From the NCBI GenBank assembly GCA_021734905.1, contig JAIPIB010000004.1:6743-70742 (forward strand): a DNA stretch of 64,000 bases. The letters are read 5' to 3'. The first letter of the stretch is position 1, and every line of letters starts with the position of its first letter. The position numbers and the translations under genes were made by a program. The notes beneath the pieces are model-generated. The model was given only the letters and a program-made list of their open reading frames with translations, searched no databases and was not told the origin of the DNA. Shown in pieces: positions 28,993 through 61,553 of the stretch. The DNA comes from Minisyncoccota bacterium (lineage in GTDB: Bacteria; Patescibacteriota; Minisyncoccia; Phycocordibacterales; UBA918).

Positions 28993-29063
28993 GAATAAAA
29001 TTATACACGATTCCGTAGGCGCATTCTGTTATTGTGCGACACTCCTCATGTACTATATATAGT

Positions 29064-29990
29064 ATGAAACTATCTGAGCTCAAACGAGAATTTCTTGAGT
29101 ACTTAGAAATCGAAAAAGGACGAAGTATTCTTACGATTTCAAATTACGATAGATACTTGGCTCGGTTTTTGACGTATGCAAATACAGAAGATCCCCAAAA
29201 ACTCACGGAGCAGACTGTTAGAGAATATCGTCTCTGGCTTAATAGACAGCCTGGGACAAAAACAGGACGTCAGATTGATACTTTAAAACGAAAAACGCAA
29301 AACTACTACCTCATTGCACTCCGCGCATTCCTTAAGTACCTCCGAAAGCGGAGTATTGAATCACTTAACCCAGAACTTATTGAACTTGCGAAAGTTCCTG
29401 ATAGATCACTTGATCTCATCTCCACACAAGAACTTAACCGACTTATGGATGCGCCTGATGTAAACACTACTCGGGGACTTCGTGACCATGCCATACTCGA
29501 GCTTCTTTTTTCAACAGGGCTTCGTGTTTCTGAATTATGTTCGTTATCACAAGAGGATGTCGATCTTTCGCGAGATGAGTTTTCTGTTCGAGGAAAAGGA
29601 GACAAGGTTCGCGTCGTCTTTCTTTCTGACACAGCACGTAATGCAATCAAAGAATATTTGAAAGTGCGAAAGGACTTTGACGATGCAATGTTTGTTCAGT
29701 ATGGAAAAAATAGTAAAAAAGAGGAAGTGAAAAACAAAGACCTGCGACTTACTCCACGAAGTGTGCAACGTATTATTAAACAGTACGCAACGATTGCTGG
29801 CATTACGCGGAAAGTAACCCCGCATGTTATTCGACACTCTTTCGCCACTGACCTTCTCAGTAATGGCGCTGATATTCGTTCGGTGCAGGCGCTCCTCGGA
29901 CACGCCAATATTGCAACGACGCAAATATACACCCATGTCACTGACAAACACCTCCGCGACATCCACAAGAAATTTCATTCGCGGGGGTAA
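29064..29990 (+). CDS. xerC: Tyrosine recombinase XerC/XerD family
   Basis: Catalytic residues (RHSFATDLL...LGHANIATTQIYTHV) and an N-terminal core-binding domain. The start is taken at the ATG of MKLSELKREF; the ORF track start at 29034 adds 10 aa. Confidence 0.85.
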   Translation: MKLSELKREFLEYLEIEKGRSILTISNYDRYLARFLTYANTEDPQKLTEQTVREYRLWLNRQPGTKTGRQIDTLKRKTQNYYLIALRAFLKYLRKRSIESLNPELIELAKVPDRSLDLISTQELNRLMDAPDVNTTRGLRDHAILELLFSTGLRVSELCSLSQEDVDLSRDEFSVRGKGDKVRVVFLSDTARNAIKEYLKVRKDFDDAMFVQYGKNSKKEEVKNKDLRLTPRSVQRIIKQYATIAGITRKVTPHVIRHSFATDLLSNGADIRSVQALLGHANIATTQIYTHVTDKHLRDIHKKFHSRG

Positions 29991-39860: not shown

Positions 39861-39932
39861 GCACCCATAGTGAAATGGATATCATAACTGACTTCGGATC
39901 AGTCGTTGGGGGTTCGAGTCCCTCTGGGTGCA
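39861..39932 (+). tRNA. tRNA-Arg (anticodon TCG)
   Basis: Manual cloverleaf: acceptor GCACCCA/TGGGTGC, D-arm GTGA-AATGGATA-TCAT, anticodon stem ACTGA/TCAGT with loop CTTCGGA, T-arm GGGGG-TTCGAGT-CCCTC, discriminator A. No CCA is encoded. Confidence 0.85.
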
Positions 39933-40064
39933 CAAAATGCCAAGCGCAACACGAAAGTGTTGCGCTTGTTGCGTTTTGGCACTCAGAGGGACTCGAGAAG
40001 GTTGCCAGCTATTTTGTAAAAATAGCGACAACCTGTACTGAAACTGTAAGTTTCGAGTCCCTCC
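39929..40064 (+). repeat. tRNA-linked structured repeat unit, copy 1 (136 bp)
   Basis: Begins in the last 4 nt of tRNA-Arg. It contains a terminator hairpin with a GAAA loop, an antisense copy of the tRNA 3' half (GGCACTCAGAGGGACTCGAG), a nested core (AGGTTG...CAACCT with GCTATTTT/AAAATAGC inside) and a sense copy of the T-arm (TTTCGAGTCCCTCC). It is 135/136 identical to copy 2. Confidence 0.85.
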
Positions 40065-40246
40065 AATAATAGACTTCAAGCTCAGAAGTAAGGTTTTTTA
40101 AGGTATTGGTACACAGAATGTACCAATTACAAGAAATATGGCAATTCCTTACTTCGCTATATAAAAGTATAAGTACAACTATTGTTTAATACAAATTAAT
40201 GTATAAACTTGCATATATAGGAACAATAAGATATAATTGATGCAAT

Positions 40247-41410
40247 ATGATAAGAAAACTTAAGTTCAAAAACTTTTATTCCTTTAAGGAAGAGCAGGTT
40301 CTAGATTTCACTGTTACCAAGAAGAAAAGTGACGAATACTATGAATCTCTTGACGGAACTCAAATAAGCAAAGTGATGGCTTTTGTTGGTCCGAATGCTT
40401 CTGGAAAAACAAGTGTCATGAAGTTGTTTGGGTTTCTGAGCTATTTTCTTACATCAGCTTCCAGAGATATCAAAGATACAAATGACACTGGCTTTAACCA
40501 ATATGCATTTTCAAAACCAGAAACAAGCCTTTTGAGTATAGAATTTGAGACTGCTGAAAATCTATTTACTTATGAATTAGAGTTAGACCCTAAACAGGTA
40601 TACCAAGAAACACTTCATAAGAAGATTTTAAAGAAACGAGCACGACCCCTCTTAGTCTTCCATCGAACAATTGAGGGAGTTGAACTAAATAAAAAAGTTC
40701 TTAAAAATATTCCCAAAAAACAACTTGCGTTGTTGCGAAGTGACATTTCCTTAATTGCTTTTTTAAAAGCTAACTTTGATGTGCCGATAATTAATGAAGT
40801 ATATGAATATTTCAATTTATGGTTTGCAAATAATATAAACGAGTCAGGGTATATTGCTTCCCCAGAAACTAAAATGGACGATGCTGCGCAAAGTTACTTA
40901 AAGATTCCGTCATTGAAAGAAAAAATGGAAGAATTTATTAGAAACTTTGATGTTGGAATTGATAAGTTTCTTATTGAAAAGATAGATAGCAAAATTGTAA
41001 TTAAAGGCTGTCATAAAATTAATGACAAAGAACATAATATTCCTTTCCAGTATGAATCTCGTGGCACAAAAACGTTATTTGTAGATTTACTCCCTATTCT
41101 AGGAGGGTTAGAAATTGGAAATTGCTTAATAATTGATGAAATTGAAACAGGACTTCATCCTCAGGCGGTTGATAAATTAATAAGCTATATCGTAGATCAC
41201 ATAAGAAGATCAAAAAAACAGTTTATTTTTTCCTCTCACTCTTTTAACTTTTTAGAGTTATTCGATGCACCACAAATTTATTTAGTTGAAAAGAATGAAA
41301 ACAAAAGTGAAGTCTTTAGATTAGACTCTCTAGGTGTACGACCAGATGAGAATTTCTACTCTAAATATATGAGTGGTGCTTATGGCGCATTTCCTAAAAT
41401 AAGAGTGTAA
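40247..41410 (+). CDS. AAA_21/ABC-type ATPase, AbiLi/OLD-N-terminal-like (putative abortive-infection ATPase)
   Basis: 387 aa. RecF/SMC-like N-terminus (IRKLKFKNFYSFKEE), Walker A (GPNASGKTS), Walker B (LIIDEIETGLHP) and a signature-like FSSHS motif. Confidence 0.7.
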   Translation: MIRKLKFKNFYSFKEEQVLDFTVTKKKSDEYYESLDGTQISKVMAFVGPNASGKTSVMKLFGFLSYFLTSASRDIKDTNDTGFNQYAFSKPETSLLSIEFETAENLFTYELELDPKQVYQETLHKKILKKRARPLLVFHRTIEGVELNKKVLKNIPKKQLALLRSDISLIAFLKANFDVPIINEVYEYFNLWFANNINESGYIASPETKMDDAAQSYLKIPSLKEKMEEFIRNFDVGIDKFLIEKIDSKIVIKGCHKINDKEHNIPFQYESRGTKTLFVDLLPILGGLEIGNCLIIDEIETGLHPQAVDKLISYIVDHIRRSKKQFIFSSHSFNFLELFDAPQIYLVEKNENKSEVFRLDSLGVRPDENFYSKYMSGAYGAFPKIRV

Positions 41411-41412
41411 AT

Positions 41413-41883
41413 ATGAAAGTTCGCCAAATAAAGAAAATGTGCCTCTTGTTTGGCGAAGGCGGGAAAGAAGAAATCTTCTTTCGGTTCTTAGAAAACAGTA
41501 ACAGGTTCAAGAATCGCTTCCCGGATTGGGGAATAGAAATGTCGCATGCGTCTGGGGAAGCGTGCTCAGTTATACTTCAAAAATGTATAAATTTCACATC
41601 CAAGCGTGGTTTCGATTTGGTAATATGCTTTATTGATACAGATAAACTGCAAGAACATGGAAGTCGAAGTGAAGAAGAAAAGAATCGTTTAGAACAGTTA
41701 GCAACAGAACACAGGATTAAAATAATATGGCAAGATCCTGACCATGAGTCAGAGTTAAGTAGGGCTACAAATGGTCGAATAAAAGGAAAAGCTGGTATGC
41801 GGCGGCGGCTAGAAAATAACCTTCAAGCTATCTCAAAAAGCGCTTTTATCCGTAGGATTTTCGCCTTTTTCCCAAATGAGTAA
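41413..41883 (+). CDS. DUF4276/RloB-like small TOPRIM-like protein (putative AbiLii-like partner)
   Basis: 156 aa. The N-terminal LLFGEGGKEEIFFRFL fits the EGxTE-type motif and ICFIDTD supplies a DxD motif. It starts 2 bp after the ATPase gene stop, suggesting translational coupling. Confidence 0.5.
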   Translation: MKVRQIKKMCLLFGEGGKEEIFFRFLENSNRFKNRFPDWGIEMSHASGEACSVILQKCINFTSKRGFDLVICFIDTDKLQEHGSRSEEEKNRLEQLATEHRIKIIWQDPDHESELSRATNGRIKGKAGMRRRLENNLQAISKSAFIRRIFAFFPNE

Positions 41884-41917
41884 GTCTATACTCTTGTTCC
41901 AACGTCGTCCCATAACC

Positions 41918-42053
41918 TGCACAAAATGCCAAGCGCAACACGAAAGTGTTGCGCTTGTTGCGTTTTGGCACCCAGAGGGACTCGAGAAGGTTGCCAGCTA
42001 TTTTGTAAAAATAGCGACAACCTGTACTGAAACTGTAAGTTTCGAGTCCCTCC
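41918..42053 (+). repeat. tRNA-linked structured repeat unit, copy 2 (136 bp direct repeat of 39929-40064)
   Basis: One mismatch to copy 1 (GGCACCCAGAGGG here versus GGCACTCAGAGGG). This copy has the perfect antisense match to the tRNA-Arg 3' half. Together with copy 1 it brackets the two-gene cargo. Confidence 0.85.
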
Positions 42054-42085
42054 TGCCACACACGATAGCATGCTATTATTTTCTT

Positions 42086-43639
42086 ATGAGTGAAGGCACT
42101 TTTAATAAATTATTCAGTGGTCCCAAAGAGAAAAAATCTGAAAAACAACTACCAGTAGATGGTAATGAGCCAGCAAATCCTGCAAGAAGAAAATTTTTGA
42201 TTGGGAGCGCGGCGCTAGCCGGTTCTGCCCTAGCTGGGGCGTATTTAATCGGTCGAGAAAATGATGACGTGGACGAAAGTATTTCTGAAGACAGTCCATC
42301 GTTTCCGTCAGCTGAAAAGTTGAGTGAACTCCAATTTGCACGTGAGAAGATACGAGCATGTGTAGAGAGTATTCAGAAAAGTCCCTTTATGGAGAAGCCA
42401 CAAGAGGCTAAAAACGCACTAGAAAATGTCGTGGTTAATACCGACCACACTTCAGTTGTTCTTGGCATAGAAGAAGCTGACGTTATGAGCACTCTTCATA
42501 TTCAAGATGTTCGAGAACTTTCAGAACAAATTCGAAACAGAAATGGTAAAGGTGATGGAGGGTACACACATCAAGAAGGAAACAACGTGTACAATATTTC
42601 ACTCGAAGATACAGTGGTTGATATTGGAGTGTCGAATCGGTTTTTGGTAAAGAAATATTCGAGTGATGGAACTTTGAGCAGCAGTTCCCTTCCGGTATAT
42701 GCAGTTAAAAGATCTCGTTACGAGAAAAAACAAACAACCCATACAACTGTAGGTAAAAATGGTAAAGAGAAAAAAGTAAAAGAAACCACCGGAGATTATG
42801 TTGAATATGTACCATACATACCACCATCTTCCCATCTTGTGAGCAAAGAGAGCGTCGGATCTGGAAAGGAATATGTGGGTACGGTACTTGAAGCAGCACA
42901 TTCAGTACTTTCTCATCGTATGCTGAAGTCAAACCAAAGAGTCTTGAGTATCTGTCACGACATCTGCAAGCGACTTGCTATTGTTGAGCACGTAGATCCG
43001 ATTGCGCTTATAAAATCTGAGAAAAAAGAAGGCAATGAAACAGAATTGCATGTAGAGGACCGGAGGAAGACATTTTACCAAAAAATGTATGCAGAATACG
43101 GACTCAATCAGGATGCCTCATTCAACCACCTCATCAACTCTCTTGGCGCAGGCGGTATGATGCAGATAATGCGAAAAACATACGAGGACATACGAGCTCG
43201 TATGATTGTTCGGAAAATATTTCTTCCAGATGAAATTCCTGAAGACGCAAACGAAGGAAGGAAAGACCCACTCATTTCTGCAATAATTGCAATGTATCTC
43301 TGCTATGATAACTACCTGGTAAAAGGCAAGGTCCTTACCGGAAAACGTGATGATGAAATAGAATTGGCGCTTGTCTCTATGTATAACGGGAGTCCTAATC
43401 TTTTTAGAAAGATATTGAAAGGTGAAGAAGTGAAAAAAGCAAAAAGAGGTAAAAAAGTAAAAAATAAAAGTTTAGTTAGTGGGAAAAAACCGTCGGTGTC
43501 ATATCCCAACGCAACACCCTTCATATACAAGCTCTTAACACACAACCAAGGTGCAAAATTACCAGGGAGTAGCCAATCAGAAAATGGGAATTATCTTCGA
43601 AAGTATCTCTGGCTCAAAATGAATGAAGGGAAAGTGTAA
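42086..43639 (+). CDS. Secreted SLT-domain (lytic transglycosylase-like) protein with twin-arginine-like signal
   Basis: Start is set at MSEGTF, since the ORF track start lies inside the repeat. The signal region RRKFLIGSAALAGSALAGAYL looks Tat-like. The C-terminal region has SLT-like motifs (NSLGAGGMMQIMRKTYEDI and SMYNGSPN). Confidence 0.5.
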   Translation: MSEGTFNKLFSGPKEKKSEKQLPVDGNEPANPARRKFLIGSAALAGSALAGAYLIGRENDDVDESISEDSPSFPSAEKLSELQFAREKIRACVESIQKSPFMEKPQEAKNALENVVVNTDHTSVVLGIEEADVMSTLHIQDVRELSEQIRNRNGKGDGGYTHQEGNNVYNISLEDTVVDIGVSNRFLVKKYSSDGTLSSSSLPVYAVKRSRYEKKQTTHTTVGKNGKEKKVKETTGDYVEYVPYIPPSSHLVSKESVGSGKEYVGTVLEAAHSVLSHRMLKSNQRVLSICHDICKRLAIVEHVDPIALIKSEKKEGNETELHVEDRRKTFYQKMYAEYGLNQDASFNHLINSLGAGGMMQIMRKTYEDIRARMIVRKIFLPDEIPEDANEGRKDPLISAIIAMYLCYDNYLVKGKVLTGKRDDEIELALVSMYNGSPNLFRKILKGEEVKKAKRGKKVKNKSLVSGKKPSVSYPNATPFIYKLLTHNQGAKLPGSSQSENGNYLRKYLWLKMNEGKV

Positions 43640-43762
43640 ACACGGACAATATGGTCCAATTATATAATCGACACCACCGTTGACTTTTTCGTCGCAAAAC
43701 TGTTTACTTTGCATATTCTCAATGTGTAGTGTATTTGAGTGTTCTTTTGAAAGGATAAGAAA

Positions 43763-44353
43763 ATGGACCAATACCGGACATCGTCATACCTTAGTCATCG
43801 TAGGAAACTCCTCAGACTTTTATCAGCGATGTGGAGTGATCCAAGGGTTCAGTTGTACCGTAACCATAATCTGCCGATTATAAAAGAGTTAGCCGAGGGG
43901 TCAGTCTTTTTGGCGGGCCCGACCTCGCGCCACCAAATTCTTGAGCATAATTGGAGGTGCCTCGCTGTCTACTATTTACGCCGTGCGGGTTTCAGGGGTT
44001 ATATTTACGTTCCTGAACCACACGGACAGGAACAATCTGGTGATTTCACTGAAAAGAGTTTTATTCACTATTGGGAATCTTCACGATTGAATGATGCAAA
44101 GTGTGTTGCGTTTTGGATTCCTAGAAAAGCTGATGAACTTCTGGGTCTAAATACCAACCTTGAACTCGGAATCTTTTTGGGCAAATATAGCAACTTGTCT
44201 AAGGAAGAAAAGGAGAAGAAACTGTTCATTGGTTGGCCTAGAGATGCCGAGCGTATGGGGTTACCACACCATTATGCACACGAACTTGGAGAACATCGTA
44301 TCTACCAAGAAATCAAGCAATTATGCGAGGCGATTGCGCAACAAATGATATGA
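43763..44353 (+). CDS. Nucleoside 2-deoxyribosyltransferase-like (Rcl/DNPH1-like Rossmann) protein
   Basis: 196 aa. FLAGP motif near the N-terminus and GLNTNLELGIFLG, which resembles the DxGTxxELG motif of the PF05014 family. Assignment is tentative. Confidence 0.4.
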   Translation: MDQYRTSSYLSHRRKLLRLLSAMWSDPRVQLYRNHNLPIIKELAEGSVFLAGPTSRHQILEHNWRCLAVYYLRRAGFRGYIYVPEPHGQEQSGDFTEKSFIHYWESSRLNDAKCVAFWIPRKADELLGLNTNLELGIFLGKYSNLSKEEKEKKLFIGWPRDAERMGLPHHYAHELGEHRIYQEIKQLCEAIAQQMI

Positions 44354-44525
44354 CCACGATATCTCACCCAGTCGACTAACAAGTCGTCCAACAGGAAAAG
44401 CCATCTGGAGGACGGCTTTTTCTATGTTTTACTGACCATTTTAATGGCCACGGGCATCCCGTAGTCCGCAAAGTTGACTTCCAGCAAAACCATGGTACAG
44501 TAAACGCGGATAAAAAAGGAGAAGA

Positions 44526-44921
44526 GTGATGGTAAATGAAAAACGCGGTTCTGTGATTGAAGGTTTCGTTTTTGCAGTAACTCTTGCGGCGATTGTGGGG
44601 ATTGTGTGCAAAGTTGCAATCCCTTCCGATGGTTTGAGTGCTTTGTTTGCATACCTTACTGCTGTACTGTATGGGGCAGCAGTGTATGAGCTCTGGGTTT
44701 TCCTCATGAACAACTGCTCATCCCTGGTATGGGAAGACGGCGCCGAACCAGTCGAATTGGACCTAAGACAGACAATCATCGCGCCATTCCTGCCTATTGC
44801 AGTTCTTCTTGCGGTATTTGCCATAGCCATTTTGTTTTTGATGGCGTACTTAAAGTACTTGTACGACAAAGCCCAAGGTCGCCATGATGTGGTAACGAAA
44901 AATCCCCCGACTACAAGTTGA
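44526..44921 (+). CDS. Four-TM small membrane protein
   Basis: 131 aa. Strong RBS (AAAGGAGAAGAGTG ATG) and a downstream terminator hairpin at ~44950-44990. The opposite-strand 162 aa ORF is judged less likely. Confidence 0.4.
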   Translation: MMVNEKRGSVIEGFVFAVTLAAIVGIVCKVAIPSDGLSALFAYLTAVLYGAAVYELWVFLMNNCSSLVWEDGAEPVELDLRQTIIAPFLPIAVLLAVFAIAILFLMAYLKYLYDKAQGRHDVVTKNPPTTS

Positions 44922-45018
44922 CCGAACACATCTCAGTAGAAGGCGCAGTTGTCCACCAACTGCGCTTTGTTTTTATATTAAATCGAACACATGAGACTGT
45001 ATACTATATATAGTTACT

Positions 45019-45681
45019 ATGATACGCAAATCTGCACAGTATGAACAGGCAAAAGAACTACGAATGCGTGGTTTTACATACGCCGAGGTTGCAAAGATTG
45101 TCGGTGTCGCTAAAAGCACTGTTTCTCTATGGTTTTCACGTGAAACATGGTCTGCGAATGTTGCAGAAGACAACACGAAACGTGCGGCGAAGGAAAATAA
45201 AAAACGTATTACTCTTCTAAACAAAGCCCGAAGTAACCAATTTAGAAAGCTCTATACGGAAGCTGAGCGTTCAGCAACTACAGAATTTAAACATTATAAG
45301 AGCAATCCCCTTTTTATAGCTGGTCTTATGCTTTACTTGAGTAAGGGGGATCATTCAAACAGTCCAGTGATTTGTATTTCAAGCTCACGTAAGGAAATTC
45401 ATCGCTTATTCATTAGGTTTTCAACTGAATTTCTTGGTGTTCAAAAAGAAAAAATGAGATTTTGGTTATTACTTAATTCAAGCCATTCAGCCGAGACATG
45501 TTCACGTTCATGGTCGAAGGAGATAGGTCTTTCCGTGAAACAGTTTCACAAGAATCAGATTACTAAGAACAATAATATAGGTAGTACATTGCATGATGGT
45601 GTTGGAAATACTATAATCGGAGGCACACTCATGAAGAAAAAGCTTCAGAAGTGGGTTGAAACAGCTCTTTTGGAGCTGTAG
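45019..45681 (+). CDS. Hypothetical protein with N-terminal helix-turn-helix
   Basis: 220 aa. HTH-like GFTYAEVAKIVGVAKSTVSLWF. It lies immediately upstream of tRNA-Gly(GCC), in the accessory region. Confidence 0.45.
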   Translation: MIRKSAQYEQAKELRMRGFTYAEVAKIVGVAKSTVSLWFSRETWSANVAEDNTKRAAKENKKRITLLNKARSNQFRKLYTEAERSATTEFKHYKSNPLFIAGLMLYLSKGDHSNSPVICISSSRKEIHRLFIRFSTEFLGVQKEKMRFWLLLNSSHSAETCSRSWSKEIGLSVKQFHKNQITKNNNIGSTLHDGVGNTIIGGTLMKKKLQKWVETALLEL

Positions 45682-45690
45682 ATCACATAT

Positions 45691-45761: not shown

Positions 45762-46260
45762 CAAAATGCCCCGAAAGGGGTTTTTCTGTGGCCAGGAGAA
45801 AGGTGCCGTGCACCTTTCGTGGTAATCGAAACCGCCGGAACGATGTGAGGTACGAACAAGTGAGGCGTGACCCGTGGCACTTATGAGCGTAGCGAATTAG
45901 TGACCATCAGGTTTCAATTACCCCTGGCCGCACCATTAGATAAGTCGGGCTTTTGCCCGGCTTTTCTAATGGTGGTGGGTAATTGAAAAAGCTTTTAAGT
46001 TAGATTGTGAGGCGTATGCCGAAGCAATCTAGCCAAAAGGTGTACTGAAGCAGTATGCTTTCGATTCTTCTTACAGAAGCTGTCTACTTTGCGGGTGTGG
46101 AACACCTCACAAAGTCTTGCGGAATGATGTTAAATCATTCCTCACCCTGGCCACACCATGTGTAGAATAGGCGGGAGGCTGTGAGACCGCAAAGTGGAGC
46201 TAACAGTGAAATGCCGACTCATAGTACAATTACCCAAGTAACCACCCTTTCCACGGGTGG
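45762..46260 (+). repeat. tRNA-Gly(GCC)-linked repeat region with several sense and antisense copies of the tRNA 3' half
   Basis: Begins CAAAATGCC, as the tRNA-Arg unit does, then a terminator hairpin (CCCCGAAAGGGGTTTTT). Antisense tRNA pieces follow (TGTGGCCAGG, GGTAATCGAAACC, GGGTAATTGAAA). Sense copies are TTTCAATTACCCCTGGCCGCAC near 45915-45937 and CCTGGCCACACCA near 46138. Confidence 0.6.
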
Positions 46261-46437
46261 TTTTTATAAAAGACATCTTTAAGGACATTCAGATTTTTGA
46301 GTGGAAAATGTTGAAAACTGGGGAAAACTAAGTTGATATGTGGATAAAGGACACAAATTTATAATAAAATGTCCTTAAAAAATGGCTTAAGATATATGGA
46401 TCGTCAAAATCCAAGACATCTACCGCAATATGTGCAT

Positions 46438-47063
46438 GTTTCACGTGAAACATTTACGATTTGTGCCTATACACTATATAGTTTCATATGAAACCACATG
46501 GCAAAACACAATGAAATTGGTAAATTAGGAGAGGATTTGGCCGCAAAATGGCTTAGAAATATAGATTTTGCAATTCTGGAAAGGAACTACCTTAAAAAGT
46601 ATGGAGAAATTGATATTGTTGCACGTGAAACAGAAATAATTCACTTTATTGAGGTTAAAACTGTTTCATATGAAACAAAGCGTATACTTGAAGACTCTGT
46701 TTCTCGTGGAACGTGGCGCCCTGAGGAAAATGTTCATTTTGAGAAACAAAAACGACTTGCGCGGACCATTGAGGCATGGATTCATGAAAATGAATATTAT
46801 GGTGACTGGCAAATTGATGTCCTTACGGTACGAGTAGTTCCACGTGAAAAGTTTGCTAGTTTTATGATGATCGAGAACGTGATATTTGAATAGTTCCATG
46901 TGGAACAAAGGAATAACGTTCCACGTGAAACACATAATCTAATTATGTGACTAAAAATCAATGTTTTGAGTTTAGTTAACATAGGTCTGGCCTATGTAAC
47001 TATTTTTGAGTAGTAAAACAGTATGTTTCATATGAAACGTACCGTTTGTGTTCCGTGTGGAAC
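46438..47063. repeat. Array of at least 9 related 14-bp palindromes around and inside the YraN-like gene (GTTTCACGTGAAAC / GTTTCATATGAAAC / GTTCCACGTGGAAC-like)
   Basis: Perfect GTTTCACGTGAAAC at 46438. Perfect GTTTCATATGAAAC at 46481 (4 bp before the start codon), at ~46655 (inside the CDS) and at ~47025. Half-site hybrids occur at ~46621, ~46835, ~46893, ~46918 and ~47050. Confidence 0.7.
46498..46893 (+). CDS. YraN/UPF0102-family putative endonuclease
   Basis: 131 aa. The N-terminal GKLGEDLAAKWLRNIDFAILERNY...GEIDIVARE pattern is typical of YraN. Confidence 0.7.
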   Translation: MAKHNEIGKLGEDLAAKWLRNIDFAILERNYLKKYGEIDIVARETEIIHFIEVKTVSYETKRILEDSVSRGTWRPEENVHFEKQKRLARTIEAWIHENEYYGDWQIDVLTVRVVPREKFASFMMIENVIFE

Positions 47064-48764: not shown

Positions 48765-49352
48765 TTGATTTTTTTAAGGTATACTTCGTGTATGAATATA
48801 ATTTTTCTTATCATAGTTTTTCTTCTCGGGGTTGGGACGTATGCGGGCGTTAATTATCTAAATGACAAAAACCCTGTAGACTCAAGTATCGATACTGTTG
48901 AGATGATACCTAGTGAAAAAGCTGATATAAAGGTGGCTGAGCCAGCCGAAGAGACAAAAACTACTGTGTCCAAAGGTAGCCCAACGATAGATCTAAGTAA
49001 TCAAGGGCTCGTCAAAGTCCAAGGATCTATTTTTGATAAAATAAACACGGAAGTACTCAATCTTTCAAACAATAACCTCAGTGGGTCATTGTCATCAGAG
49101 ATCGGGCACTTAAAAAATCTCCGCATTTTGGATCTCAGCAACAATAACTTCACCGGTGTGCCGGCAGAAATTGGACAACTTTCGAATCTCGAAGTGCTTG
49201 ATTTGTCAGGGAATCCAATCACCGGCCTTCCGTATGAGCTTGGAAACCTTAAGAATTTGAAAATCCTTGATCTCAGAAATACCAATTATTCAGAGCAGGA
49301 CCTCACGGTCATTAAAGCAGGACTTCCTCAAAATATTGAAATCCTTAAATGA
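48765..49352 (+). CDS. Leucine-rich-repeat protein with N-terminal TM anchor
   Basis: At least six LRR units (LNLSNNNLSGSL, LDLSNNNFTGVP, LDLSGNPITGLP, LDLRNTN...). Confidence 0.7.
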   Translation: MIFLRYTSCMNIIFLIIVFLLGVGTYAGVNYLNDKNPVDSSIDTVEMIPSEKADIKVAEPAEETKTTVSKGSPTIDLSNQGLVKVQGSIFDKINTEVLNLSNNNLSGSLSSEIGHLKNLRILDLSNNNFTGVPAEIGQLSNLEVLDLSGNPITGLPYELGNLKNLKILDLRNTNYSEQDLTVIKAGLPQNIEILK

Positions 49353-49689
49353 GAATAAGGAACACTGAAACTTACAGTTTCAGTACCCATTCAGGATAAT
49401 CTTCTTCGCTTCACTCGAAAAGATATCTCTGAATAGCTTCAGTTCCATATTGTCGTGGAGTCAGGGATCTTTCATTACATGAACGGTTCAGGTTGTATGA
49501 CCGTTTCTTCTTTTAGTATTTGTCGGGGAGCCGGGTGAGACAGTCCTGGAGGCTGTCGCAAGACCTTGAGCAGTTGTTGCGAAAGGTGTACAGCGTCTGT
49601 AAGACGGAATCCGGACCACTCCTTTCTCCGAAAGCCACAATAATCTCCCAGATTATTGGTTCAATTTGGTGTCTTTGTCCTAGTCTGGG

Positions 49690-53291: not shown

Positions 53292-53596
53292 TTTCCACAC
53301 GCAGACCCCAGTCTGACTGCGTGTAATAAATGAATGGGACGCTCGTAGCGAAGAAAAGTACGAGCACGACAGAGGGATAAGAGACCGAAGCCCTGTCAAA
53401 AGCTTTCTGGTAGATCAGCTTAAACTACCCGTTCGCCCAAACGTGATTGGTGCATTGGCGAGTTGAGTGTTTACTCCTCCTCGCCATCTTTATACAGTTT
53501 CTGAAATTGTCGGAAACTTTTAGAGATTTGTTCTTTCACATTGAACACCGGCATACTGCCAACCGCACCCCAGGTGAGTGGGTAAAGGAGATTGGG

Positions 53597-54538: not shown

Positions 54539-55312
54539 GGCATGAGCGGGGATCTGGGGCAACACATAACCCTCAGGCGAGACCGCATTTCGAATGAATG
54601 GTCTGCGACGGCAGATTGCGCGGGGTTTCGAAAGATCCTCGAAGGCACAGACCAAGTTAATGTCAGAGTAACGACGTTAACCCAGTGATGGCCAATGTCA
54701 TATCTTCTCCTCGACGAGAAGATATGACCTTAGATAAACCAAAGATTTTGGGTTTATCAGGCATCGAGTCTGTGTAATTCTTCCACTATTCATACCCAAT
54801 GACCTGTAGCGGGTTCCATACATATGAATAGTTGGCGTAGCTTTTCAAGCTATGTGAGGCTGAGCGTCCTCAGTCAATTCCCAAGAGGACTTACAACCTC
54901 CTCTTGGGATCTTCATGAAGTTTCTGAAATCGTCGGAAACTTTTAGAGATTTTGTTCTTTCCAAACTAACACAAGGAGATTGCTATGTTGATCGATTCTG
55001 CTGAGGCATGGGAAGCGTGTAAGGTTCTCATGTTCATGTCTGGGGTCCTCGGGTTTGCAGTCGGGTTTTTTCTTCGCGATCGTTTCTGGGATGTAAAACA
55101 GAAAAATTCGCGACCGAAAGCAGACGTATATCAATTTCCGAAGCGAGGAAGTTAGGACCTTCCTCGGCTTTATACAGTTTCTGAATTTTCGGGAGTTGTT
55201 AGAGAGAAAGTTCATTTCAACATCAAATTTTCAAATCTGTTCAAGTTCGAAAATTGCAAAGATTTTATCTTGTCTGGTTAGTACAAGAATTAGTAATTAT
55301 AGTAAATTTATT

Positions 55313-57248: not shown

Positions 57249-57440
57249 AAGTAGGAATATATACTCGCATTACCCGAGCGTGATCGCGACATTGGCGAGT
57301 TGAGTGTATTCATCTCCTCGCCATCTTTATCAAGGTTTTAACTTAGGTTGAAGGTTTGATAGAGGGTAAACAGGCGGTTCCTGGAGGGAATCGTCTGTTT
57401 TTTGCAAAAAAACAGACGCAAAAATGATATACTTGTACAT

Positions 57441-61374: not shown

Positions 61375-61553
61375 CATTTGAAAGACCGCCTTAGGGCGGT
61401 TTTTCAGTGTGCGGGCGAAGCAACCTGCTGGGAGCAGGTTGCGCGAGGAATCGAAAAGGTTGTCAGATATTTTAGGAACGAAGTAAACTAAAATATCGAC
61501 AACCTGTACTGACCATGTAATGGTCGATTCCTCTCGCCCGCACAAACTGTAAG
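61375..61553 (+). repeat. tRNA-linked structured repeat unit at tRNA-Gly(TCC), same family as the tRNA-Arg units
   Basis: Terminator hairpin (GACCGCC/GGCGGT plus T5). Antisense tRNA 3' half (TGTGCGGGCGA...GAGGAATCGAAA) split by a 9-bp hairpin. Core AGGTTGTC...GACAACCT enclosing GATATTTTA/TAAAATATC. Then GTACTGA and an exact sense copy of the tRNA 3' end (TCGATTCCTCTCGCCCGCACA) at 61533-61553. Confidence 0.8.

Follow-up and report, generated by a model that had tools for sequence, protein, structure and literature searches.

The closest described relatives of the locus studied here, AbiL, PARIS and RloAB, have been grouped as systems associating an ABC ATPase with a TOPRIM/OLD protein (FEMS Microbiology Reviews 2026, PMC13064643). 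Among them, PARIS (AriA/AriB) is the best-understood mechanistic analogue: it is a toxin–antitoxin-like sensor/effector pair, in which the sensor ATPase sequesters the effector nuclease (PMC13064643). AbiL of Lactococcus, for which PADLOC models are available, is a two-gene operon with an ABC/AAA_21 ATPase first (AbiLi, about 453 amino acids, aa) and a small TOPRIM-type protein second (AbiLii, about 206 aa), both lengths being implied by an alignment note of the same review (PMC13064643), while RloA and RloB correspond to restriction-linked open reading frames (ORFs). Here, we analyse a gene pair of this kind from a Minisyncoccota bacterium (GCA_021734905.1), found in a window of 64 kb, i.e., the whole stretch of DNA under study, which was compared with homologous, syntenic or metagenome contigs (the L-numbered loci below). 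As judged from its sequence, the segment 40247–41883 reads as a two-gene operon of the AbiL/RloAB class, composed of an ATPase and a TOPRIM protein, and we are highly confident that it is an AbiL/RloAB-family pair sitting on an inserted cassette.

The two genes (Table 1) are co-oriented and separated by 2 nt between the stop codon of the ATPase and the ATG of its partner. An initial annotation, made from the sequence alone, had quoted both ORFs along with Walker A, Walker B, EGxxE and DxD motifs, all of which were found in place. In the ATPase, the Walker A motif GPNASGKTS (residues 48–56), a signature-like SRGTK (271–275), the Walker B motif LIIDEIETGLHP (294–305) and the H-loop SSHS (329–332) are all intact. 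Its proposed membership of the AAA_21 family is borne out by Pfam (AAA_21, PF13304: E 1.9e-26, 94.3 bits for a cut-off of 27), and AAA_15 is matched as well (E 6.9e-13, 49.4 bits; cut-off 32.1). Among PADLOC models, the best match is AbiLi (PDLC02335: E 1e-63, 213 bits), followed by AriA (E 2.3e-25, 88 bits) and, below it, by MADS3, HEC-01A and GajA, the latter weakly (E about 1e-10). In contrast, the NCBIfam models for the housekeeping proteins RecF (TIGR00611) and SbcC (TIGR00618) reach 14.6 and 12.8 bits, far under their equivalog cut-offs of 172 and 478.5. Therefore, the ATPase groups with defence ATPases and not with housekeeping RecF/SbcC, as had been anticipated. More than 1000 full-length homologues were retrieved (E < 1e-10, 42–79% identity); those with a named source are mostly Patescibacteria, and one already carries the label “Abortive infection protein”.

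The small partner had been described as a “DUF4276/RloB-type TOPRIM”, a proposal of which the RloB half stands while the DUF4276 half does not: PF14103 has no match in the partner at E ≤ 1, nor in 55 members of its family at E ≤ 0.01, and RloB is preferred. In the partner, FGEGGKEE (residues 13–20) contains the EGxxE motif (E15-G-G-K-E19), IDTDK (74–78) the DxD motif (D75xD77), and DHESE occupies residues 110–114. Taken individually, the protein matches Pfam RloB (PF13707) at E 8.1e-5 (23.3 bits for a gathering score of 31.5; profile positions 2–108 of 195) and PADLOC AbiLii at E 0.0022 (16.6 bits); NCBIfam yields no match, the AriB/DUF4435 models of Pfam and PADLOC do not match, and no match to an OLD-like TOPRIM was found. 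A word-index search returned five sequences, the window's own protein included, and a profile of the five closest homologues, run against 1.84 billion representative sequences, recovered 86 of them at E ≤ 1e-3, including bona fide RloB proteins. In the alignment of the 55 family members, E15, G48 and D75 are invariant, while G16, D77, E112 and K126 are nearly so (the last three in at least 90% of the sequences); the invariant E15 followed by D75xD77 corresponds to the Glu...DxD pattern of TOPRIM domains. RloB is matched by 26 of the 55 members (best E 1e-37) and AbiLii by 27 (best E 4e-24). To avoid circularity, the profile–profile comparison (HHalign) opposed 30 members of the window's clade to seven distant ones passing the RloB gathering score; the two groups align with a probability of 99.35% (E 6.5e-21, 112 columns, residues 4–122), and the catalytic Glu, DxD and Glu columns are in register. 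Finally, the AlphaFold2 model of the partner (predicted local distance difference test, pLDDT, of 95) displays a four-stranded alpha/beta fold, with E15 just after the first strand and D75xD77 at the end of the third, which fits the TOPRIM fold, and a Foldseek search with this model gave no significant match in the PDB. Altogether, the partner is a shortened, divergent RloB/AbiLii TOPRIM protein that has kept the predicted metal-binding Glu and DxD. Since AbiLi is the best model for the ATPase and the partner aligns with RloB at the profile level, the earlier assignment to the AbiLi/AbiLii type of defence pair holds, and the locus is a fresh member of the known AbiL/RloAB type, with an unusually small RloB.

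When compared with AbiL, the pair has the same organization, with an ABC/AAA_21 ATPase gene followed by that of a small TOPRIM-type protein, and the same best ATPase model, AbiLii being matched by 27 of the 55 members of the partner family. It differs by the shorter length of its proteins, by the weakness of the match between its own partner and AbiLii, and by its setting, for it is chromosomal, within a tRNA-linked cassette of a Patescibacteria (Candidate Phyla Radiation, CPR) bacterium, instead of being plasmid-borne. RloA/RloB resembles it through the partner, a homologue of the catalytic N-terminal portion of RloB (GEG..E, DxD and E fall in matching columns), and one of the homologous pairs (L008) adjoins a type III restriction-modification (R-M) system, whereas no R-M genes adjoin the pair in the window and the C-terminal region of RloB is missing from its partner. 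PARIS likewise associates an ABC ATPase with a separate TOPRIM nuclease, and its AriA model does match the ATPase, but with a score well below that of AbiLi; as AriA is not the best match and AriB has none, we rejected membership of PARIS. As for OLD nucleases and Gabija GajA, of which the latter has models weakly matching the ATPase, their modules are fused in one polypeptide, while they correspond to two genes in the window.

In all seven homologous contexts that were read (L001–L004, L007, L008 and L010/L011), the ATPase gene is followed by a gene of the partner family (clade profile: E 5e-64 to 4.5e-41). Divergence is more rapid in the partner than in the ATPase, with identities of 62% and 79%, respectively, for homologues on the same contig, and of 46–51% and 54–56% for more distant ones, which were paired through the length of their contigs. 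The settings of these pairs are diverse: in L007, the pair is alone between trmD and rpoB; in L010, it is alone amid housekeeping genes, downstream of a tRNA-Gln; in L008, its neighbour is the type III R-M system mentioned above; and in L001, the 79%-identical AbiL pair adjoins a second pair made of an AAA_21 ATPase and a 230-aa small partner, the two neighbouring pairs together making a small defence island. The 230-aa protein starts with ..VIQGEGPTEKSF.. and holds TFDTE, and this second pair may be the DUF4276-type variant that the initial annotation had in mind. Such a scattered, compact and at times island-associated distribution is typical of defence modules.

By analogy with its relatives, the pair is somewhat likely to work as an abortive-infection defence, in the following manner. 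The ATPase would bind the small nuclease and keep it inactive, by analogy with PARIS AriA/AriB and OLD/Gabija nucleases, until a phage-derived trigger shifts its state; the nuclease, freed or activated, would then cut nucleic acid (tRNA or DNA), and the infection would be stopped through the sacrifice of the cell. The cassette probably uses its own promoter, with the downstream unit hairpin as a terminator, and would thus be expressed wherever it lands. Several points weigh against this interpretation. Taken alone, the partner fails the thresholds of the curated RloB and AbiLii models, so that PADLOC or DefenseFinder might miss the system, and it covers approximately positions 1–110 of the RloB profile, the C-terminal 85 positions or so being absent, with the consequence that its activity or its contacts with the ATPase could differ. 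Moreover, no close relative of the ATPase was found in viral contigs, most loci have the pair alone among housekeeping genes and not in a defence island, AbiL itself is devoid of an established mechanism (PMC13064643), and the anti-phage function of the window's clade is a prediction drawn from its relatives.

The main functional rival, which is compatible with defence, holds that the pair is mainly a toxin–antitoxin-like addiction module, with the nuclease as the toxin and the ATPase as the antitoxin, stabilizing the cassette, or the hold of the cell on it, and not directed against phages. This would agree with PARIS acting as a type II toxin–antitoxin pair (PMC13064643), with the Pfam description of AAA_21 as a “putative AbiEii toxin, Type IV TA system” and with a compact two-gene unit, possibly endowed with its own promoter, that stands alone among housekeeping genes in several genomes. 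Yet, toxin–antitoxin behaviour and abortive infection are not mutually exclusive (characterized relatives do both), and some homologues adjoin R-M systems or other ATPase–nuclease pairs, which is the usual signature of defence; we therefore regard a mainly addictive role as rather unlikely. It is still much less credible, to the point of being barely worth retaining, that the pair would be a housekeeping system for DNA repair or recombination, of the RecF/SbcCD/OLD type. At face value, the SMC/RecF-like N-terminus of the ATPase (SMC_N: E 1e-4; AAA_23: E 4.5e-4) and the position of the L007 pair between trmD and rpoB might suggest so, but the RecF and SbcC scores given above are far too low, the distribution is sporadic, with no homologous DNA found at the syntenic site in 80 related species, the GC content marks the cassette as foreign, and the pair is flanked by repeats.

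These repeats delimit the cassette (Table 1). They are 136 nt long, 1989 nt apart and identical at 135 of 136 positions, the single difference being a T at 39983 against a C at 41972. The first copy begins within the last 5 nt of the tRNA-Arg gene (TGCAC, one trailer base included) and runs 131 nt beyond it, and the T-arm-like sequence at the end of the repeat resembles the 3′ end of the tRNA without being identical to it. Within copy 1, the covariance model R1 scores 88.5 bits (39987–40069), and one finds, in order, a terminator hairpin (39941–39968), an arm (39974–39996) in antisense orientation relative to the T-arm and acceptor 3′ strand of the tRNA, a conserved hairpin AAGGTTGCC..CGACAACCT, GTAC, and a 5-bp hairpin (loop CTGTAAG) running into TTTCGAGTCCCTCC, the sense T-arm copy. 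Copy 2 folds at −69.7 kcal/mol (z −8.9), and its terminator-like hairpin (41930–41957) is placed to terminate the abiL operon; TGCCACACA, which follows copy 2 alone, marks the right-hand limit of the duplicated segment. The insertion thus amounts to 1,989 bp (1,853 unique and one 136-bp unit) within a structured unit behind tRNA-Arg. Its unique segment has a GC content of 33.7%, compared to 41.8 ± 2.6% in windows of the same size, and none of 80 syntenic loci from related species, collected by way of the neighbouring gene for the CCA-adding enzyme (beside which most of them keep the tRNA-Arg), matches its DNA in blastn. Moreover, a Logan contig (L006, from SRR12088351) carries the identical gene pair and is made up of the 1853-nt unique segment, extended on either side by 30 nt of the repeat, which is where an assembly graph is expected to break if each repeat border joins two flanks. 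Taken together, the repeats, the low GC content, the 80 loci without a match and L006 establish that the insertion is real and lineage-specific.

The AbiL pair represents the only genes of the 1853-bp segment, and the covariance model detects no further unit between 42062 and 45690, in line with the earlier statement that the pair is the sole cargo of the cassette. Regarding expression, the −35 box of the candidate promoter (TTGCAT, 17 nt, TATAAT) fits the consensus at three of six positions, which is why a scan for consensus promoters did not list it; a comparable TTGCATATATGAGTATAAT precedes the 79%-identical homologue. No integrase lies inside the element, in contrast to a tRNA-targeting integrative island; nor does it match an integron cassette, no integrase being adjacent and the arms of the units being tRNA-derived. 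A phage origin was set aside, for neither a close relative of the ATPase nor a copy of the unit core was found on viral contigs. More broadly, the segment between tRNA-Arg and tRNA-Gly(GCC) (39934–45690) is a variable hot spot, the distance between the two tRNAs being 5758 nt in the window versus 245–630 nt in L013, L016, L027 and L017. Besides the cassette, it contains genes of 517, 147, 122 and 220 aa with no Pfam match on record; the last one (45019–45681), in which we read a putative N-terminal helix-turn-helix, is also present after tRNA-Arg units in L019.

Every tRNA of the window has a unit downstream. Behind tRNA-Arg, tRNA-Gly(TCC) and tRNA-Gly(GCC), the units share one layout: a terminator hairpin; an arm carrying, in antisense, the acceptor 3′ strand and T-arm of the tRNA and often split by a small hairpin; the conserved hairpin AAGGTTGCC...CGACAACCT; GTAC; a short hairpin of 5 bp, its loop being CUGUAAG or AUGUAAU; and the tRNA again, in sense orientation, from its T-loop through the 3′ end. 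These three units are far more stable when folded than shuffled sequence (z −8.9, −12.8 and −5.1, respectively). Behind tRNA-Pro, the sense copy is present with a different layout, and folding is no better than that of shuffled sequence. At least two unit architectures exist. Of 242 tRNAs, taken mostly from the 80 syntenic loci, 54 have their last 17 nt repeated downstream in sense orientation, mostly at +115 to +175. A search for the 26-base core pattern CAACCTGTACTGAANCTGTAAGNTTCGA returned 103 metagenome stretches and no viral contig, and a tRNA of the same strand ends at most 300 nt upstream in 62 of the 92 core hits with enough upstream sequence, which amounts to 24 anticodons. The sequence of the arms differs according to which tRNA lies next to the unit. 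Structure was assessed on 62 distinct units, in which much of the 3′ half is fixed by the search pattern, so that the informative pairs are those of the arms, the inner hairpin and the N:N′ pair. Paired cells reach 93.4%, versus 35–49% when the partners are slid by 1–3 columns, and the covariation score is 0.287, versus 0.110 in shuffles, none of 500 reaching the observed value; for instance, pair 79–87 is GC in 35 units, AU in 20, CG in five, UG in two and never unpaired. The units represent an apparently undescribed family of structured elements, about 85–170 nt long, located downstream of Patescibacteria tRNAs; each has a three-way junction, in which the closing stem is formed by the sense and antisense copies of the T-arm and acceptor of the neighbouring tRNA. 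Searches of the whole window at gathering thresholds, and of two unit regions at E ≤ 10, revealed no Rfam family matching the units, and no description of tRNA-linked units or cassettes in CPR was found in Rfam or in the searchable literature.

Four other identities were considered for the units and rejected: a retroelement primer-binding site (it is to the genomic trailer, not to a CCA end, that the antisense arm corresponds), an IS110 bridge RNA (pairing occurs between the two arms, and there is no transposase), a miniature inverted-repeat transposable element (the “terminal repeats” vary from tRNA to tRNA) and a group I intron or hammerhead ribozyme (Rfam gives no sign of either). The short hairpin of the units has a covarying 5-bp stem (TGAAN/N′TTCG, TGACC/GGTCG, TGGTC/GACCG), and its 7-nt loop has the form of an anticodon loop carrying GUA, with a U at loop position 2 and an A behind the triplet. 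Furthermore, many units (e.g., L103, L117, L166, L191) have an insert of the type GTGAGCGAAGCGAAAC in their long inner hairpin; with its tandem G-A motifs around a GCGAAGC mini-hairpin, it resembles a kink-turn or K-loop, a reading which, if true, would imply that the units work as protein-bound RNA.

The arrangement of a cargo between two units is not restricted to the AbiL cassette, since about ten other loci, from assemblies of other projects, display it. In a related genome, L032 carries a HAD-family hydrolase next to tRNA-Gly(GCC), between repeats of 146 nt that are 95% identical, 914 nt apart and of a different unit architecture. The contigs L092 and L163 both begin inside a unit and have their downstream flank in common but different cargo (1.7 kb with a 453-aa secreted protein and 0.55 kb with a 114-aa membrane-anchored protein, respectively); their flanking units are two different variants, each also found alone. 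This tRNA-Asn site is polymorphic: L114, L130 and L161 hold a single unit, L161 with an intact tRNA-Asn, L114 and L130 with its 3′ half only. The latter begins at about the anticodon loop and is preceded by unrelated sequence and another unit; it looks like a displaced piece that a larger element left behind on integrating in the anticodon loop. Six more loci of this type were identified in the metagenome set (L100, L101, L103, L148, L166, L190), while L185 and L187 have shorter or weaker repeats at similar spacing. In these other cassettes, the cargo consists of one or two small genes (HAD hydrolase, secreted protein, peptidase S51 with DUF5672, aspartyl protease, P-loop protein, unknowns), with neither a recombinase nor a recognizable defence gene. 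This does not sustain the earlier suggestion that the repeat units are specifically tied to the mobility of defence genes. Conversely, the homologous AbiL pairs of L001–L004 and L007–L011 have no flanking repeats or type-1 units, from which it follows that the association of AbiL with units is a single event in the window's genome. Together, the miscellaneous cargo and the unit-free AbiL pairs link the units to the mobility of small genes in general, the AbiL pair being one passenger.

The cassette would have arrived by recombination, site-specific or homologous, of the resident unit with another that accompanied the cargo. The closest parallels are integron cassettes (an ORF with its attC) and the folded attP of CTX phage: here too, the cargo is short, usually of one or two genes, miscellaneous and without its own recombinase; it is bounded by imperfect inverted-repeat elements of about 100–150 nt, conserved in structure and variable in sequence; and arrays and tandem copies occur. 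Unlike in integrons, there is no adjacent IntI and no R′′/R′ GTTRRRY cores were recognized (no formal attC model was run), the arms reproduce the T-arm and acceptor of the adjacent tRNA gene, varying from one tRNA to the next, and the units lie downstream of at least 24 tRNA species, not at a single attI, recombination at them being a prediction. The sole candidate for a trans-acting recombinase in the window is a XerD-like tyrosine recombinase (34% identity to E. coli XerD over its full length), located 10 kb from the cassette and present as one syntenic copy per genome in many relatives. Tentatively, and with real doubt, we propose that the units are attC- or CTX-attP-like folded recombination sites, at which a recombinase acting in trans inserts or exchanges small promoter-bearing cassettes beside tRNAs; if true, the AbiL pair would be one such cassette, and the process a tRNA-anchored, integron-like gene capture in ultra-small genomes.

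RecA-mediated recombination can use homology of about 100–150 bp, and the cassette could have come by ordinary homologous recombination (a Campbell-type event, or transformation by DNA from a related strain), with the 136-bp unit as portable homology only and devoid of any dedicated recombination role, which we hold to be a serious possibility, albeit not a probable one. It accommodates copies that are 135/136 identical throughout, for any crossover point inside them fits, and the lack of a recombinase in this or any other cassette, as well as of a Xer-like gene in 567 kb of unit-bearing metagenome loci. However, L092 and L163 are flanked by different variants, one of the L114 type and one of the L130 type with an extra hairpin, and three independent cassettes (window, L032 and L092/L163) have their junctions at corresponding positions, where the repeat ends just past the T-arm-like TCGAnnCC..CC and the far end of the cargo, located immediately ahead of the GCA that belongs to the tRNA 3′ end, reads ...CC|TGCAC or ...GGA|GCA ahead of the repeated trailer; in addition, plain homology tracts would not need the strong structural covariation of the units. 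A more trivial explanation would be that the duplication of the 136-bp unit is an assembly artefact, the gene pair merely lying downstream of tRNA-Arg. Indeed, the genome was assembled from a metagenome, misassembly is classically caused by repeats, and L006, which may come from the same or a sister sample, may not be independent. Nevertheless, L006 ends in the repeat on both sides, as it would if the graph branched at both borders and the repeat were joined to four flanks, the copies differ at one base, and the layout recurs in about ten assemblies of other projects, all of which makes an artefact very improbable.

Table 1. Location of the features discussed in the text (positions in the window, unless another locus is named).
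Feature	Position	Strand	Basis or remark
tRNA-Arg(TCG), anchor	39861..39933	+	ARAGORN; Rfam tRNA 63.9 bits
Direct repeat copy 1, resident unit	39929..40064	+	repeat search, inverted repeat I10, terminator, R1 model
Unique cassette DNA, 1853 bp	40065..41917	+	GC, blastn vs syntenic loci, Logan contig L006
Possible cassette promoter	40209..40237	+	read from sequence; ends 9 nt before ATG
abiLi-like gene, predicted ABC-type AAA_21 ATPase, 387 aa	40247..41410	+	ORF list, Pfam, PADLOC, NCBIfam, homologue search, motifs
abiLii/RloB-like gene, predicted minimal TOPRIM protein, 156 aa	41413..41883	+	ORF list, HMMs (hidden Markov models), family alignment, HHalign, AlphaFold2 model
Direct repeat copy 2	41918..42053	+	repeat search; R1 88.7 bits at 41976-42058
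TGCCACACA, acceptor-like tail of sense arm	42054..42062	+	sequence; closes outer stem with GGCA in fold
Units downstream of tRNAs	39934-40064, 41918-42062, 45763-45935, 45936-46077, 49350-49685 (-), 61376-61546
Short unit hairpin	40037-40057, 42026-42046, 61508-61528
XerD-like tyrosine recombinase	29034-29990	+
91-nt direct-repeat family, three copies	53436-53526, 54859-54949, 57273-57363
Second pair in L001: 451-aa AAA_21/AAA_15 ATPase and 230-aa partner	L001: 2054-4094	-
L032 cassette	L032: 624-1754	-	next to tRNA-Gly(GCC), related genome; HAD-family hydrolase cargo

From a broader perspective, the gene pair is itself ordinary for its class, while the units that bracket it are widespread and seem undescribed. 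The pair adds a compact Patescibacteria clade to the AbiL/RloAB class, with its numerous ATPase homologues and a minimal RloB of roughly 156 aa found in 86 representative clusters. As it may approach the smallest natural ATPase–TOPRIM defence pair, it could be handy for working out phage sensing and the cleavage target. It also offers a clean, datable insertion of a putative defence module in a genome of less than 1 Mb, and shows how episymbionts poor in mobile elements gain immunity genes. Potentially, the flanking units matter more still, for they are widespread, covary with tRNA identity and repeatedly bracket small cargo; should they be true recombination sites, they would represent a new route of gene exchange in the CPR.

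Two further sequence elements were observed in the window. The 91-nt direct repeats (Table 1) are 66–73% identical, end in GTTTCTGAAAT..GGAAACTTTTAGAGA and are unrelated to the tRNA units. Lastly, the palindrome GTTTCACGTGAAAC and its variants occur in three copies, about 180–220 nt apart (46437–46932), around a UPF0102/NERD-like gene (46498–46893); the presence of GTTTCACGTGAAAC at the equivalent place in L013, L016 and L027 suggests that it is probably a conserved operator or promoter element.

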